Shown here: in pieces, positions 4,319 through 29,691 of the stretch
Position numbering within the stretch: the first letter of the stretch is position 1
Layout of the letters: every line of letters begins with the position of its first letter
Made by a program: the position numbers and the translations under genes
Virus record (IMG/VR): IMGVR_UViG_3300024348_000017
Coordinates: 26,869 to 90,868 of that record
Length of the DNA stretch: 64,000 bases
Origin: a virus
Strand: one strand, 5' to 3'
The notes under the pieces: model-generated
What the model was told of the DNA's origin: nothing
Databases searched by the model: none
What the model saw: the letters and a program-made list of their open reading frames with translations, nothing else

Positions 4319-4600
4319 TTATAATGATGCTTTATAATCTTCATCTGCATCAGCATTACTTATTACTCTGTATTGTCCATTTACTATTCTATCGTCTTCA
4401 GTAAAGCCAGCACTGTCATATTCTGGTTCATCATCTTCATTACTATCCATTTCATATATTACTAAATCGATTTCATCACGTACTTTGTCTATTAGGTTAT
4501 TTACTGCATTAGCGTCTAATAGTTTGTGTTCTGAATAGTGTGTTATTGCTATGTTTAAGCAGTAATACATTTCGTTTAATTCCTTTAATGTTAATTTCAT
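4319..4600 (-). CDS. hypothetical acidic protein
   Basis: start moved to MKLTLKEL, downstream of the promoter motif at 4618-4643. Confidence 0.55.
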   Translation of the reverse strand: MKLTLKELNEMYYCLNIAITHYSEHKLLDANAVNNLIDKVRDEIDLVIYEMDSNEDDEPEYDSAGFTEDDRIVNGQYRVISNADADEDYKASL

Positions 4601-4617
4601 ATTTTTTAATTTTATAA

Positions 4618-4643
4618 CGTCAATGTACGAACGGAGCCCTGCC
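4618..4643 (-). promoter_or_regulatory. bipartite phage promoter
   Basis: GGCA gggctccgtt CG TACATTGA; near-identical to the copy at 5507-5531. Confidence 0.7.
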
Positions 4644-4687
4644 AAGCACTAAGGAAGCGCCTTAATGGCGCTCCTTAATATACTTGA

Positions 4688-5473
4688 CTATTTACTAATC
4701 AATGTTAATTTATCTGTATCGGCACATAACTGCTTAAATTCATCCGCTGTTATGTTATTCATATTATCTACTCTAATTGTGTGTGACTCAATCATACCTG
4801 TTGTTAGGTTAGTAAGCGCTACACTGCTATTCTCACCTGTTAAGATATATTGATTCTCATCTTCATGTTTATATCTGTTACCTACTTTATGGGTAATGAA
4901 TAGTTCTGGAAAATCAGATTCAATTTGGTCTTTAAGGAATGATACTTTAGCTAATTCTTTGATTTGCTCTAGGCTTGATACTACGATCGCTTTCATACTG
5001 TATTGTTTTAATTGGTTATCGTCAATATACGATTTCTGTTCTGCCCCAACTAATACTAGATCACGTTCATTGTAGCTATTTGTTTCGCCATTCGACCAAG
5101 CAACATATATACCTAAATCACAATTTTTAATATCACTAATAATACCATCGGTATCAATTGGATTCCAAGTATTTTCAACACCATACCAAATTGAATCATC
5201 ACTAATCATTACTTTATCACCTACTTTGAATTTTGATTTCACTTTAGTCTCAGTTTGTTCTACTGCTGGGCAGAAATGAGCAGCGAATTTATCTTTAGGA
5301 ATAACAATGTCTATACCTCGTCCTGATGCTTTGTCCATTAAATAACCATTAGGACCATAATCGTCCCAATAAACGAATTTTTGACCTACTCTACAACGAT
5401 CACCATTGAAATCGGTAAAACCTTTGTAACACTCATAAACGACGCCTTGTTGTGGCTTAATTGATTTACTCAT
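4688..5473 (-). CDS. hypothetical protein with KFKVGD (SH3/KOW-like) modules
   Basis: FKVGDKV, HKVGNRY, CRVGQKF motifs typical of phage YorP/SH3-like domains. Confidence 0.55.
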   Translation of the reverse strand: MSKSIKPQQGVVYECYKGFTDFNGDRCRVGQKFVYWDDYGPNGYLMDKASGRGIDIVIPKDKFAAHFCPAVEQTETKVKSKFKVGDKVMISDDSIWYGVENTWNPIDTDGIISDIKNCDLGIYVAWSNGETNSYNERDLVLVGAEQKSYIDDNQLKQYSMKAIVVSSLEQIKELAKVSFLKDQIESDFPELFITHKVGNRYKHEDENQYILTGENSSVALTNLTTGMIESHTIRVDNMNNITADEFKQLCADTDKLTLISK

Positions 5474-11931: not shown

Positions 11932-12560
11932 TACTTAAACTTAAATCCTGTTAATTTTTCAACATCAGTAACACTAACCTTATTATTGGTGATACCGTCT
12001 GCTTTAGTTGTATTGTTATCAAATATAAATGCCATGTATTCTTTTGTCTTCTTAGTATAAACTACTTTCCAACATTGGGTTGGTACTGATGTAGTGCCTA
12101 TTTTATTTGCTACGCCTATTGACCCAGCCCAAACATGCACTGAATCCTCTTTAAGTGCTGTTTCACGAGATAACATTTCCAATGTTTTCCAATCCCCACG
12201 ATTTAAAGCAGGGTATTGAGCAGTCATATTACTGAAATAAAATGATTCGTCGTTTGCTACTTGATCGCATGAAGCGTCAGCGGCTGGAAAATTATGTCCA
12301 CGATCGAAACCAGCGCCTGTATAGTCTGATTGTAAATTTGTTTCAGTTGGTAATTTAGGATCAACAATAAATTTATCACCACGTTTTGCCTTAACAGGAC
12401 ACGTTAGTGATGCTTTTGTAATCCACCATTCAACTTTAACTGGGTAGTGTTTTGATTTGCTGTAATGCGTTGTGTACGCTTTGTGTGTTAGTATAACTAC
12501 ATCTTGAGCTGTAACTGTAAAACTAACTAATAGTAATAAGGCTAATAGGCATTGTTTCAT
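11931..12560 (-). CDS. exported DNA/RNA non-specific endonuclease (NucA/EndA type)
   Basis: signal peptide, DRGH catalytic motif, SNMTAQYPALNRGDW. Confidence 0.9.
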   Translation of the reverse strand: MKQCLLALLLLVSFTVTAQDVVILTHKAYTTHYSKSKHYPVKVEWWITKASLTCPVKAKRGDKFIVDPKLPTETNLQSDYTGAGFDRGHNFPAADASCDQVANDESFYFSNMTAQYPALNRGDWKTLEMLSRETALKEDSVHVWAGSIGVANKIGTTSVPTQCWKVVYTKKTKEYMAFIFDNNTTKADGITNNKVSVTDVEKLTGFKFK

Positions 12561-27377: not shown

Positions 27378-27429
27378 GTAAAAGGCCCACTCTGAGCGCC
27401 CTGATCGCGGGAAGGGGAATGGACTCTTG

Positions 27430-27800
27430 TGGAGATGACGAGAGTCGAACTCGTGTCTCAATAATGAACAATAATACCAACGTCTCACACGCTTAGCTCA
27501 CTGATTAACCCCAGTGCATGAGGTATAGGGCCACAAGTTTTTGGTCTTAGTGACATCCACCACCTAGTTTTAATCTAAACTAAGAAAATCTAGCTTGTAA
27601 CTTCTGTTCCTAGGATGTTACACCCGACGCTATTTAAGCCGCTAATGCGTACTCGTTCGCACCTACGAAAGACATCATATCTTCGAAGGTCATAGTAGAT
27701 AATTCTACAGTTATTGTTTCGCAAGGTTTTAAGGACTTATCTTACTTTGTCCGCGTGTGGTACTACCTTCAGATTACTGATCAAATACCGGTACATCCCC
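27430..27800 (-). ncRNA. ssrA: tmRNA
   Basis: GGGGAUG/CAUCUCC acceptor stem with G3-U70, T-arm ACGAG-UUCGACU-CUCGU, tag ORF ending YALAA at 27634-27708. Confidence 0.93.
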
Positions 27801-28100
27801 ATGTTTTTTTGACTTTTTGTCTAATATTTTCTTCACTTCAGCACATAACTCATATTCCTCAATTTTAATTAAGTCATCTAAGCAATTGCTTAATAGTTCA
27901 ATATACTGCGATTTTTCAATATTAAATATCATACCACTTGTATCCTTGAATGTGATATCAAATATATCAATGCCGTCTTTATTTCGTTTATATGCGCTAA
28001 GTACACATTTAACCATTTTAAGAATCAATTCACTGTCCCTTTCCTTCATCATTTGAAGGAACTCACGTTGATCCTTTAACATTAAACAGTGGCATGCCAT
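27774..28100 (-). CDS. protein with C-terminal UVR (UvrB/C) helical motif
   Basis: LIKIEEYELCAEVKKIL; start inferred from ATATTTAT 4 nt upstream. Confidence 0.55.
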   Translation of the reverse strand: MACHCLMLKDQREFLQMMKERDSELILKMVKCVLSAYKRNKDGIDIFDITFKDTSGMIFNIEKSQYIELLSNCLDDLIKIEEYELCAEVKKILDKKSKKHGDVPVFDQ

Positions 28101-28113
28101 AACGATAAATATT

Positions 28114-28223
28114 AAATACACTGTCTGTACTGTTAAACTGTCTCAATACTACCTTTATCCGTAGTAGAGGTGCTTTATTCATTCTTAGCGTCTGTTCAGT
28201 CCTCCTTTCGGAGCAGTGTATTT
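28114..28223 (-). ncRNA. putative structured RNA of unknown class
   Basis: perfect 10-bp closing helix, CUCC-GAAA-GGAG and UACUAC/GUAGUA hairpins. Confidence 0.55.
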
Positions 28224-28224
28224 G

Positions 28225-28310
28225 TGCCTCAGGCGAGAATCGAACTCGCACTCGCGTTGCGGCGAACAGGATTTTAAGTCCTGCGTGTCTACCAATTTCA
28301 CCACCAAGGC
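28225..28310 (-). tRNA. tRNA-Leu(UAA)
   Basis: class II cloverleaf, CAGGA-CUUAAAA-UCCUG. Confidence 0.95.
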
Positions 28311-28370
28311 ATGAGACCCGATATCCGCGTTTTCATCTCACTCGGGTCATGATGAGCTTCCGACGGTTTG

Positions 28371-28526
28371 CTGTAGGGGCTGGAATCGAACCAGCACGCT
28401 GCAATTCAATATAAGACAATTAAGCCGGCTTTGTGGTCAACCCATATCTTACATCTATCTCTTATCAGCACCCACGAGACGAGTGGGCACGTCTACCTTG
28501 ACTGCCGTCATTTCCGCCACCCTACA
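28371..28526 (-). ncRNA. aberrant tRNA-like RNA (GUC in anticodon position, enlarged D-loop and variable arm)
   Basis: acceptor UGUAGGG/CCCUACA, T-arm GCUGG-UUCGAUU-CCAGC, CCCAC-UCGUCUC-GUGGG arm. Confidence 0.75.
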
Positions 28527-28529
28527 GTA

Positions 28530-28763
28530 TTAAACCCATCTATTACCATTTCGGCGTTTAGCTTCTTCAGCTTCTTTAACTCCTTTAACCATTTTAATCC
28601 AGGTTAAAGATACGTCAACAGGAGCTAATACCCAAGCCATAACTAAAACCATTATAGCATCCATTTCTGGGGAGGTTCCGAAATCAATTCCTCTTGTTTT
28701 ATATTTTTTATTTAACTGATAGAAACAGTAAATAATACAAATAATGTAATAACCTAATAACAT
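28530..28763 (-). CDS. small membrane protein
   Basis: two hydrophobic segments; likely start MLLGYY. Confidence 0.5.
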   Translation of the reverse strand: MLLGYYIICIIYCFYQLNKKYKTRGIDFGTSPEMDAIMVLVMAWVLAPVDVSLTWIKMVKGVKEAEEAKRRNGNRWV

Positions 28764-28767
28764 ATAA

Positions 28768-28977
28768 CTATTTTTTAAAGTATTTTTCAAGTGCATCTAT
28801 CTTATCATCAGCATCAACTAACATTGTAAGTGCTTCTTCAGCATTACTATAGAAGTCTTTTGTTGAATGATCACCAATACCAACAGCGTGATTAGATAAT
28901 AAATCTAAACTTAATAATGCTTTTGATTTTTCAGCTATTGCTGATGCCATAAGCATGTCAAATAATTCTTTTTTCAT
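28768..28977 (-). CDS. conserved small phage protein (VGIGDH motif)
   Basis: 69 aa, AVGIGDHS motif. Confidence 0.6.
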   Translation of the reverse strand: MKKELFDMLMASAIAEKSKALLSLDLLSNHAVGIGDHSTKDFYSNAEEALTMLVDADDKIDALEKYFKK

Positions 28978-28990
28978 ATTTTTTATTTTG

Positions 28991-29075
28991 CGGAAAGACA
29001 GGGATTCGAACCCCAGAACCTGTTACAGTTGCCAGTTTTCAAGACTGGTGCATTCAACCACTCTGCCATCTTTCC
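28991..29075 (-). tRNA. tRNA-Ser(UGA)
   Basis: class II cloverleaf, CCAGU-CUUGAAA-ACUGG, G73. Confidence 0.95.
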
Positions 29076-29080
29076 AAGAG

Positions 29081-29178
29081 GATGAGGTTTAGCGGCCAAC
29101 TAAACAAAGTTACTACTTGCTCTCACCTCGAGTTACACGTGACAGTTACGGGTGAATAGGGTTTCGTCAACACTCATC
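29081..29178 (-). ncRNA. putative structured RNA between tRNA-Thr and tRNA-Ser
   Basis: GAUGAG/CUCAUC closing stem and internal hairpins. Confidence 0.35.
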
Positions 29179-29182
29179 TTTG

Positions 29183-29255
29183 ATCCAGAAATAAGAATCG
29201 AACTTACGACCTACTGATTACAAATCAGTTGCTCTACCTGCTGAGCTATTCTGGA
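29183..29255 (-). tRNA. tRNA-Thr(UGU)
   Basis: cloverleaf, ACUGA-UUUGUAA-UCAGU; U1-A72 first pair. Confidence 0.92.
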
Positions 29256-29259
29256 GTTT

Positions 29260-29344
29260 AGAGGATAGGCTCCGCGCCTCTACTAGGGGTTTCCTAATAG
29301 CGTAGACTTTCATGTTATTACCTTCGCATGCTCTCCTACCCTCT
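29260..29344 (-). ncRNA. putative structured RNA (three-way junction)
   Basis: 10-bp closing helix with a G-U pair only on the minus strand. Confidence 0.5.
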
Positions 29345-29353
29345 TTATATTTT

Positions 29354-29459
29354 TAGGAAAGTAGAAGATGGGTGCGTGGACATCTACTTTTACGATTGGC
29401 ATTTCTAACCGATTATATCCGCCCTTCCTACAGTTAAAGGATACGTCCCAATCAACCTA
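29354..29459 (-). ncRNA. putative structured RNA
   Basis: UAGG/CCUA, GAUUGG/CCAAUC and AAAGUAGA/UCUACUUU helices. Confidence 0.55.
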
Positions 29460-29466
29460 ATATCAT

Positions 29467-29537
29467 AACAACTACCTACAATTTTTTAAAGTCGCCTCCT
29501 CGTCATGCGATGGTTATACCTGCGGCAGGTAGTTATT
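29467..29537 (-). ncRNA. putative structured RNA
   Basis: 13-bp closing helix with two G-U pairs on the minus strand. Confidence 0.5.
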
Positions 29538-29542
29538 GTTTG

Positions 29543-29614
29543 TTGCGAGAGAAGGATTCGAACCTCCGACCCCTAGGTTATGAGCCTAGTGAGCTACCCC
29601 TGCTCTATCTCGCG
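29543..29614 (-). tRNA. tRNA-Met(CAU), initiator-like
   Basis: C1:A72 mismatch, CUAGG-CUCAUAA-CCUAG. Confidence 0.92.
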
Positions 29615-29619
29615 GTTTG

Positions 29620-29691
29620 TACTTCCAACGGGATTTGAACCCGTATTACTTCCGTGAAAGGGAAGTGACCTAACCCTTAGTCGATAGAAGC
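29620..29691 (-). tRNA. tRNA-Glu(UUC)
   Basis: cloverleaf, CUUCC-CUUUCAC-GGAAG. Confidence 0.93.

Follow-up and report, generated by a model that had tools for sequence, protein, structure and literature searches.

A phage-encoded tRNA-shaped RNA with a giant variable arm belongs to an RNA family shared with Bacteroidota

We describe a 156-nucleotide (nt) RNA gene with the shape of a transfer RNA (tRNA), located on the minus strand of a viral DNA stretch at positions 28371..28526. The stretch, referred to below as the window, comprises 64,000 nt of the IMG/VR virus record IMGVR_UViG_3300024348_000017, which is 90.9 kb long with an estimated completeness of ~53% and a GC content of ~33%. As judged by comparison with its relatives, the element is a real, strongly conserved gene and is the phage branch of a family which is also found in Bacteroidota chromosomes. 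An initial annotation, made from the letters alone, had described it as an aberrant tRNA-like RNA and proposed a non-decoding tRNA mimic; the observation is confirmed and its interpretation is partly supported. Two features go beyond that annotation, namely that the anticodon loop is of the aspartate type (GUC, C38) and occurs together with G73 and U1-A72, and that the family is also present in Bacteroidota chromosomes, beside the regulatory gene asnC. The phage copies form a separate clade, in which the D loop is doubled and the arm tip always contains a co-varying perfect palindrome.

The family was collected in several searches. An exact search with the T arm and the acceptor stem returned four viral contigs, in which the copies already differ by compensatory changes. 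The motif of the arm tip retrieved 55 viral contigs of up to 238 kb, and a looser pattern together with the covariance model R1, built from 47 distinct phage copies only, added 13 further, more divergent copies. The total is more than 65 copies from uncultured phages, all on large contigs, and about 40 from the chromosomes of Bacteroidota. Five phage genomes are complete, with sizes of 174-238 kb and terminal repeats in three cases, and they contain exactly one strong copy each. With blastn no homolog of the element was found among 50,697 cultured phage records.

The single-sequence fold of the element is only moderately better than those of shuffled sequences (z = -2.67), therefore the comparison with relatives had to decide on the cloverleaf. 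For the 47 phage copies RNAalifold gives a cloverleaf with a three-helix arm and double compensatory changes in 25 of 42 pairs. In the alignment of 69 phage and cellular sequences 96.5% of the cells are in standard pairs, compared to 80.2% after shuffling (none of 500 shuffles reaches the observed value), and only 42-50% of the cells pair when the partners are slid by 1-3 columns. Both sides change in 29 of the 42 pairs. Acceptor pairs 4-7 co-vary, as do the D-stem pair 11:24 (C-G/U-A) and the pair at alignment columns 55:65 of the anticodon-like stem. On this comparative evidence the cloverleaf is proved. The initial annotation had named homologs with compensatory changes as the test between a functional RNA and a decayed pseudo-tRNA; such homologs exist, and the covariation and wide conservation rule out the decayed gene. 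The tree of the same 69 sequences separates 43 phage-type copies from 26 cellular ones with a support of 1.0.

Neither ARAGORN nor Rfam calls the element, the latter even at E<=10 (no RF00005 match). A cellular copy has no Rfam match either, the best score being that of tRNA-Sec (RF01852) with 17.5 bits versus a gathering score of 47. The absence of Rfam matches at E<=10 for the phage and the cellular copy speaks against a known RNA family, and a full-text literature search found no description of a giant-armed RNA of this kind. The family is thus apparently undescribed, as far as the literature and Rfam were searched. An RNA class that is abundant and folds well therefore escapes the standard finders of tRNAs and RNA families.

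The element runs from U1 at 28526 to the discriminator G73 at 28371 and scores 150.5 bits with R1 (E ~1e-39). The 7-bp acceptor stem is formed by the 5' strand UGUAGGG (28520..28526) and CCCUACA (28372-28378), which are RNA positions 1-7 and 149-155, and is followed by U8-G9. The D arm (28489..28517, minus strand as all features of the element) has a 3-bp Leu-type stem GCG/CGU and a 23-nt loop, where G18G19 is retained (GG at RNA positions 30-31) and the phage-clade-specific hairpin UGAC-GGCA-GUCA is inserted (28499..28510, RNA positions 17-28). The anticodon-like arm (28471..28487) consists of the stem CCCAC/GUGGG and the 7-nt loop UCGUCUC (28476-28482), which reads C33, G34, U35, C36, U37 and C38. 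The variable arm of 72 nt (28398..28469, RNA positions 58-129) contains helices P1, P2 and P3, each with compensatory changes. The closing helix P1 is GCUG/CAGC, P2 is short, the internal loop has the strands GAUA and UGAA, P3 has ~11 bp (28445-28455 with 28409-28419), and the apical loop is 26 nt long. The AUAAGA/UCUUAU helix lies within this arm. The tip of the arm carries the motif GGGUUGACCAC (28433..28443), common to the phage copies and most cellular copies, and the perfect self-complementary 10-mer AAGCCGGCUU (28422..28431), which is a candidate site of RNA-RNA self-pairing. The T arm GCUGG-UUCGAUU-CCAGC (28379..28395) is paired in 100% of the cells and four of its five pairs co-vary. 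It is followed, beyond the acceptor strand and G73, by the CAA trailer (28368..28370), in which C74 is encoded and the remainder of CCA is not.

The intact acceptor stem, the canonical T arm, the Leu-type D arm and the loop without U33 and purine 37 were all described correctly in the initial annotation. The D-loop hairpin and both named arm helices are present as well, but GGCA is not a GNRA loop, its third base being C, and the arm has 72 rather than ~75 nt. The suggested extension of the acceptor stem by C-1:G73 is not kept by the relatives, which have U, C or A at position -1, and an 8-bp Sec-like acceptor is rejected on the same ground. We also rejected three other readings of the element. 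In the hammerhead-like CUGAUAAG of the arm the site of the required G is variable (A or C), and no ribozyme model matches; the AUG of a potential minigene AUG-GGU-UGA in the arm tip is replaced by AGG, ACG or AUA in relatives; and relatives do not keep the bases that would let the anticodon loop pair with GAGAU in the arm or with AGAC in the D loop.

In the family, U1-A72 is present in 69/69 sequences and G2-C71 in 68/69; G34 is found in 67/69, U35 and C36 in 69/69, C38 in 62/69, and a pyrimidine occupies position 37 in 69/69. G73 and the encoded C74 are present in every phage and cellular copy inspected. Common to both branches are the acceptor UGU.../...ACA-G-C, the stem CCCNC/GNGGG, the loop and the arm base with the GAUA internal loop, and the element has the complete feature set of the family (U1-A72, G73-C74, GUC with pyrimidine 37, class II D arm, GAUA-loop arm). 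The loop is UCGUCUC, UUGUCUC, CUGUCUC or one of a few other variants, with C33 in the phage clade and in the Chitinophaga copies. CUGUCUC is the loop of E. coli tRNA-Asp except at position 37. We know of no tRNA that has both the GUC anticodon and U1-A72.

The aspartate identity set comprises G73, G34, U35, C36 and C38 (reviewed in PMC9976931). According to the same review, G1-C72 and G2-C71 are strictly conserved in bacterial tRNA-Asp, where G1-C72 helps to position the 3' end in the aspartyl-tRNA synthetase (AspRS), and for the amidation of Asp-tRNAAsn by the amidotransferase GatCAB U1-A72 is a determinant and G1-C72 an antideterminant (PMC9976931). The identity set, together with G2-C71, is complete in the window copy and near-invariant in the family. 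However, the element does not share G1-C72 and the class I body of tRNA-Asp, having U1-A72, the 72-nt arm and the Leu-type D arm instead. Therefore, from its conserved loop, G73, U1-A72 and body features, we regard the RNA as a chimera: its anticodon loop and discriminator are those of aspartate, its first pair is of the tRNA-Asn type, and its class II body is of the tRNA-Leu type.

The cloverleaf is canonical in its 7/5 acceptor-T helix, G18G19 and T loop, but a canonical elongator tRNA has U33 and a purine at position 37, and the element has C33 and U37. Pyrimidine 37, C33 and the huge arm are expected to hinder decoding, and the RNA looks unfit for it, in line with the non-decoding role proposed in the initial annotation. 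A tRNA-Asp isoacceptor that works despite its unusual form, or a tRNA whose variable region hides an intron and which decodes GAY after maturation, would account for GUC in a 7-nt loop, the full cloverleaf and the tRNA-type flanks; we consider it very improbable. Besides pyrimidine 37 throughout the alignment, C33 in the phage clade and U1-A72 in place of G1-C72, the arm helices co-vary and the tip motif is conserved, as for a functional domain. A group I intron would be an insert of at least 200 nt in the anticodon loop; the insert of the element sits at the variable-arm position, has 72 nt and co-varies as a stable arm, and no group I intron or ribozyme model matches it at E<=10. Moreover, ordinary tRNA-Asp genes coexist with the element in relatives: three of the related contigs (L002, L007 and L029) additionally carry an ordinary tRNA-Asp(GUC), therefore the element is not the tRNA-Asp of the phage.

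The cellular branch was recognised by a pattern scan of one genome per prokaryote species, which found ~20 Chitinophaga chromosomes with R1 scores of 90-96 bits. Of 151 sampled Bacteroidota genomes, 14 match R1 at E<=1e-8, with copies of 109-212 nt and, in some genomes, two or tandem copies. R1, although trained on phage copies only, scores the cellular copies 50-96 bits (E 1e-11 to 1e-24), which places them in the same family. They have a normal 11-nt D loop. The gene of C. pinensis stands alone: it has a Bacteroidetes-type -7 box TAGATTTG upstream, an intrinsic terminator downstream and no nearby tRNA genes. A gene for a trmB-type tRNA (m7G46) methyltransferase lies ~700 nt downstream of it (L187:4812-5519, minus strand). 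The cellular form is carried by cultured Chitinophaga species, and the chromosome of C. pinensis has two copies.

Directly upstream of the RNA gene, in at least 10 of 16 cellular loci, there is a divergent gene for a 155-180-amino-acid protein of the Lrp/AsnC family; the other neighbours vary. All seven regulators tested score best with the NCBI AsnC model, at 150-170 bits versus at most 87 for Lrp, LrpA, LysM and others, and these scores stay under the strict cut-off of the model, 227 bits. In the 151-genome sample an AsnC-like gene at E<=1e-30 accompanies the RNA in 14/14 genomes, compared to 20/137 of the genomes in which the RNA is absent (Fisher p = 7e-11, with shared ancestry uncorrected), and it adjoins the RNA gene in 9/14. 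In the RNA-less genome G110 (C3:381375-382998) the AsnC-like gene is divergent beside an AsnB-type asparagine synthase gene, asnB, and this arrangement is the protein counterpart of the asnC-RNA pair. In E. coli asnC is divergent from asnA, which it controls. By analogy, the RNA gene occupies the place that asnA has beside asnC in E. coli. The adjacency is confined to the cellular branch: no AsnC domain is found in the phage record, where the element sits between an open reading frame (ORF) and tRNA-Leu.

On these grounds we propose as the most likely core mechanism, tentatively and with somewhat less than even confidence, that the RNA matures like a tRNA, is charged with aspartate and is used off the ribosome in a process linked to asparagine. 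The RNA would be transcribed within the phage island of tRNA and transfer-messenger RNA (tmRNA) genes and excised like a tRNA, with the RNase P cut at U1, trimming of the 3' end at the C-A-A trailer and completion of CCA. Host AspRS would then charge it with aspartate via G73, G34-U35-C36 and C38. Pyrimidine 37, C33, the D-loop insert and the 72-nt arm would bar it from decoding, so the aspartate would be used off the ribosome. The use that we favour is that host GatCAB reads U1-A72 and amidates the aspartate to asparagine. The cellular copies would then be asparagine-regulated, AsnC-linked genes, and the phage copy an auxiliary metabolic RNA dependent on host enzymes. In the phage clade one or two self-complementary loops have been added, and these probably mediate pairing between two or more of the RNA molecules. 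This model is drawn from the identity marks and the AsnC link. The window's own record encodes no AspRS-type synthetase, asparagine synthase or AsnC domain, and the five complete relative phage genomes contain no AspRS-type synthetase and no GatB, with one Asn_synthase-family gene in one of them. Therefore any charging or amidation would use host enzymes.

The full version of this proposal, in which the phage RNA is a cofactor that pairs with itself into a dimer or oligomer, is loaded with aspartate by host AspRS and converted by host GatCAB to the asparagine form off the ribosome, boosting or rewiring the asparagine supply by an RNA gene in place of an enzyme gene, is doubtful in all its parts together. 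If it is true, the cellular relatives would stand for a way of making an amino acid in Bacteroidota that is new, dependent on a tRNA-like molecule and controlled by AsnC. More generally, should these RNAs act off the ribosome, a bacterial phylum and its viruses would have in common a carrier RNA dedicated to an amino acid and not to decoding, and its phage form would be an auxiliary metabolic gene made of RNA.

Several observations weigh against the proposed core mechanism. Bacterial tRNA-Asp normally has G1-C72, so U1-A72 may lower the charging, and position 38 is A in ~10 phage copies. The asnC gene is not adjacent to the RNA gene in 5/14 genomes. GatB accompanies the RNA in 14/14 genomes, but 112/137 of the remaining genomes have it too (126/151 in all, 83%), which makes it uninformative. 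AsnB-family genes occur in 12/14 RNA-bearing genomes, a count that is blurred by paralogues, and the co-occurrence tests ignore shared ancestry. AsnA is rare, being found in 4/151 genomes, none of which bears the RNA. A simple replacement of AsnA or AsnB by the RNA is unsupported, given the rarity of AsnA everywhere and the AsnB-family genes of the RNA-bearing genomes. The asparagine content of the phage proteins, 5.65%, is unremarkable.

The same identity marks suit binding as well as charging. The RNA might hence be a regulatory tRNA mimic that titrates or senses AspRS, GatCAB, EF-Tu, the ribosomal A site with RelA or a modification enzyme, with the phage copy retuning amino-acid or stress signalling of the host and charging being unneeded or only a signal. 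We see this as possible, if rather unlikely. AsnC-type control fits a feast/famine regulator, the large conserved arm with the invariant GGGUUGACCAC motif resembles a docking surface, and the RNA-bearing genomes retain their AsnB-family genes. On the other hand, the encoded C74, G73 and the intact 7/5 acceptor-T helix are kept as in chargeable tRNAs, for which a pure binder has no need, and there is no linked partner protein in phage or cell besides AsnC.

The altered loop also bears on a decoy or shield against host defences that target tRNAs, such as anticodon nucleases and enzymes of the GUN loop, which the RNA would absorb or resist through C33 and U37. The location in a phage tRNA island and a tRNA-Asp-like loop altered at positions 33 and 37 are in favour of this reading. 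However, the same altered loop (pyrimidine 37; C33 in Chitinophaga) is present in the chromosomal, AsnC-linked genes which stand alone with their own promoter and terminator, the conserved arm and the acceptor marks would be needless for a decoy, and no defence genes are linked. We therefore regard the decoy as quite unlikely. Among the roles suggested in the initial annotation, the carrier RNA and the synthetase ligand fit the family best, whereas the decoy for anticodon nucleases fits the stand-alone AsnC-linked genes poorly.

The phage copies differ from the AsnC-linked cellular RNAs not only in forming a separate clade within tRNA islands and in having no asnC neighbour, but also in the D-loop insert and the palindromic arm tip. 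The insert is located between the A14-A15 region and G18G19 in every phage copy, with differing sequences; the median length of the D loop is 22 nt in phages versus 11 nt in the cellular branch, where the insert is absent from 26/26 copies. It is a perfect palindrome of 8-14 nt in 28/43 phage copies, with 18 different sequences, and in 0/26 cellular copies. The inserts of the window copy and its closest relatives are ordinary hairpins, not palindromes.

In the arm tip, a perfect palindrome of 8-12 nt directly follows the invariant GACCAC on its 3' side in 43/43 aligned phage copies and 57/57 of a wider set, compared to only 4/26 cellular copies. Depending on the lineage it is AGCCGGCU or, as in the window, AAGCCGGCUU, and AGCGCGCU, GCUCGAGC, CGCCGGCG, UAGCGCGCUA, GCUUGCAAGC and GCGUACGC are found in others. 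The cores include GCCGGC, GCGCGC, CUCGAG, CUUGCAAG and CGUACG, and the central tetramers CCGG, CGCG, UCGA, UGCA and GUAC are all self-complementary. A tetramer is self-complementary by chance in 1/16 of cases, which for four further independent types gives a chance of ~1.5e-5. A hairpin would constrain the flanks only, yet the central tetramers stay palindromic, and this is the pattern expected of RNA-RNA pairing between copies. The two palindromes within one phage RNA differ from each other, therefore each would pair with its own counterpart in another molecule. In co-folding, the arm-tip duplex has a predicted gain of -12 to -16 kcal/mol over two monomers. The loop thus stays self-complementary through sequence change in 43/43 phage copies, as in homo-oligomeric RNAs, and this suggests that the phage RNA pairs with itself into dimers or larger assemblies. 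The variety of the palindromes argues against a single protein-binding site as their source; an origin at the DNA level or by mutation is possible.

One cellular copy (L206:1501-1650, minus strand, genome G074) has an 8-nt palindrome, UGCGCGCA, after GACCAC as in phages, and its asnC gene is on another contig; this copy may be prophage-borne or an intermediate form. Within the GGGUUGACCAC motif of the window, the hexamer GUUGAC (28435-28440, minus strand) is nearly self-complementary; its rare variants GUCGAC (L218) and AUCGAU (L212) are perfect palindromes, and GUAGAC and AUUGAC are also seen.

If self-pairing were the core function, the element would be a self-assembling architectural RNA, in which the tRNA frame serves processing and stability and the arm builds dimers or larger RNA-only assemblies. 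The unfailing arm-tip palindrome with its varying but self-complementary tetramers, the palindromic D-loop inserts and the predicted dimer gain argue for this, and so does the precedent of GOLLD and ROOL, which are encoded near phage tRNA islands and homo-oligomerise via kissing loops (PMC12286853). The cellular copies, however, keep the anticodon loop and the acceptor marks without the palindromes, therefore self-pairing appears to be an add-on rather than the core function. The D-loop insert of the window copy is itself not palindromic, and the possible mutational or DNA-level origin counts against the architectural role too. We thus consider it unlikely as the main purpose of the RNA. In any case, owing to its palindromes the phage RNA is a candidate for a natural assembly of RNA with RNA built on a tRNA frame, and its small size (156 nt) makes it tractable.

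The comparison with known systems delimits the family further. The element shares with class II tRNAs, and with tRNA-Leu in particular, the 7-bp acceptor, the 5-bp T stem, the UUCGA T loop, G18G19 and an arm at the variable-arm position, and its D arm nearly matches the D arm of tRNA-Leu(UAA) in the same phage island. However, its arm has 72 nt (40-150 nt in the family) instead of the ~13-21 nt of class II tRNAs, and unlike tRNA-Leu it has the D-loop hairpin, G73 rather than A73 and an Asp-type loop in which positions 33 and 37 are C and U. Both ARAGORN and the tRNA model of Rfam fail to recognise it. With tRNA-Asp and tRNA-Asn, the substrates of AspRS, GatCAB and the transamidosome (PMC9976931), it has in common the aspartate identity set and the amidation determinant U1-A72, and it differs from them by the class II body, pyrimidine 37 and, in cells, the position of the gene beside asnC and not in a tRNA operon; charging and amidation of the RNA are predictions. 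tRNA-Sec and allo-tRNAs have 8/5, 9/4, 8/4 or 9/3 geometry and UCA-related anticodons, and the element is 7/5. It is not a tmRNA either: the D and anticodon arms are full, no tag is called and RF00023 does not match.

Species 1 RNA of phage T4 (rnaC) is the nearest classical analogue, and it is not a relative. It is likewise a stable phage RNA of ~140 nt (139), encoded and processed in a tRNA cluster; its ends are paired, its T arm is canonical, and its middle is large and structured. Unlike the element, rnaC lacks a D arm and an Asp-type loop, and cellular relatives of it are not known. No homology to rnaC or rnaD was found, and R1 scores rnaC at 15 bits, at or below ordinary T4 tRNAs.

GOLLD, ROOL and OLE form RNA-only assemblies with loop-loop bridges (PMC12286853). 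GOLLD and ROOL resemble the element in being phage or prophage RNAs near tRNA islands with loop-loop self-association supported by covariation (PMC12286853). They differ in their length of 500-800 nt and the absence of a tRNA frame, and their assembly is solved by cryo-electron microscopy, whereas the self-pairing of the element is deduced from its palindromes. The Rfam models of GOLLD, ROOL and Y RNA (YrlA) do not match the element. A further analogy is the dimerisation initiation site of the retrovirus HIV-1, a GC-rich 6-nt palindrome exposed in a loop. The loop palindromes GCCGGC (window) and GCGCGC (L098) are comparable in mechanism only, as they belong to an unrelated system in another host and are set in a different kind of loop.

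The element is part of an RNA island on the minus strand (~27.4-29.7 kb) with tRNA-Glu, tRNA-Met, tRNA-Thr, tRNA-Ser(UGA), two small ORFs, the element, tRNA-Leu(UAA) and tmRNA. ARAGORN lists five tRNAs and a tmRNA in the window. tRNA-Leu(UAA) (28224..28310, minus strand) is 60 nt downstream of the element, the tmRNA, called by ARAGORN and Rfam, is located at 27427-27800 (minus strand), and tRNA-Ser, Thr, Met and Glu are upstream (28990-29691). An ORF of 88 amino acids with no family match (28530..28796, minus strand) has its stop codon ending 3 nt before U1, therefore the element has to be cut from a longer transcript, like its tRNA neighbours. The trailer N73-C-A-A is identical across all seven RNA genes of the island (five tRNAs, tmRNA and the element; 27427-29691, minus strand), as the initial annotation had pointed out for the real tRNAs. 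The shared discriminator-C-A-A(A) in place of an encoded CCA suggests that the 3' ends of the island are matured in the same way throughout. This trailer and the conservation of a tRNA-shaped RNA within a tRNA island support the earlier view that the element is processed and under selection.

In related contigs tRNA-Ser(UGA), tRNA-Gln, tRNA-Leu(UAA) and tmRNA are recurrent neighbours. The C-terminus of the 88-amino-acid ORF (..NRWV*) also precedes the element in L003, L005 and L049. The 60-nt spacer between the element and tRNA-Leu (28311-28370, minus strand) contains the hairpin GACCCGA...UCGGGUC, and its start ACCGTCGGAAGCTCATC recurs 3' of the element in L031 and L053. Two other motifs recur 3' of the element, each in a different set of contigs: GTTACYGTTCTTTGACAT in L003, L004, L006, L015, L020, L033, L049 and L056, and CCTGAACACAGTG in L012, L021, L028, L036, L038, L046, L048 and L052. 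They may be promoters, processing signals or further small RNAs. For the tmRNA of the window ARAGORN gives a tag of 8 residues (ANEYALAA), while in most related phages it has 23-24 residues of the type DEMSTMTFEDLMSFVGADYALAA; the short call may start too late.

Finally, the viral contig L075 (94 kb) carries, besides its own copy of the family, at least four other stretched tRNA-like genes of 123-181 nt (L075:4212-4392, 4534-4678, 4977-5099 and 11993-12116, plus strand), and another such gene is located at L083:2669-2808 (plus strand). The genes of L075 agree in their acceptor, which is AGUCAGG/CCUGACU throughout, and share a T arm and a D arm of the Leu type, and their middles of 50-110 nt are unrelated. 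Judging from these sequences, tRNA frames seem to be reused in these phages to carry several different RNA domains. One of the stretched genes has the loop ACUAACA, that is UAA with C33 and C37.

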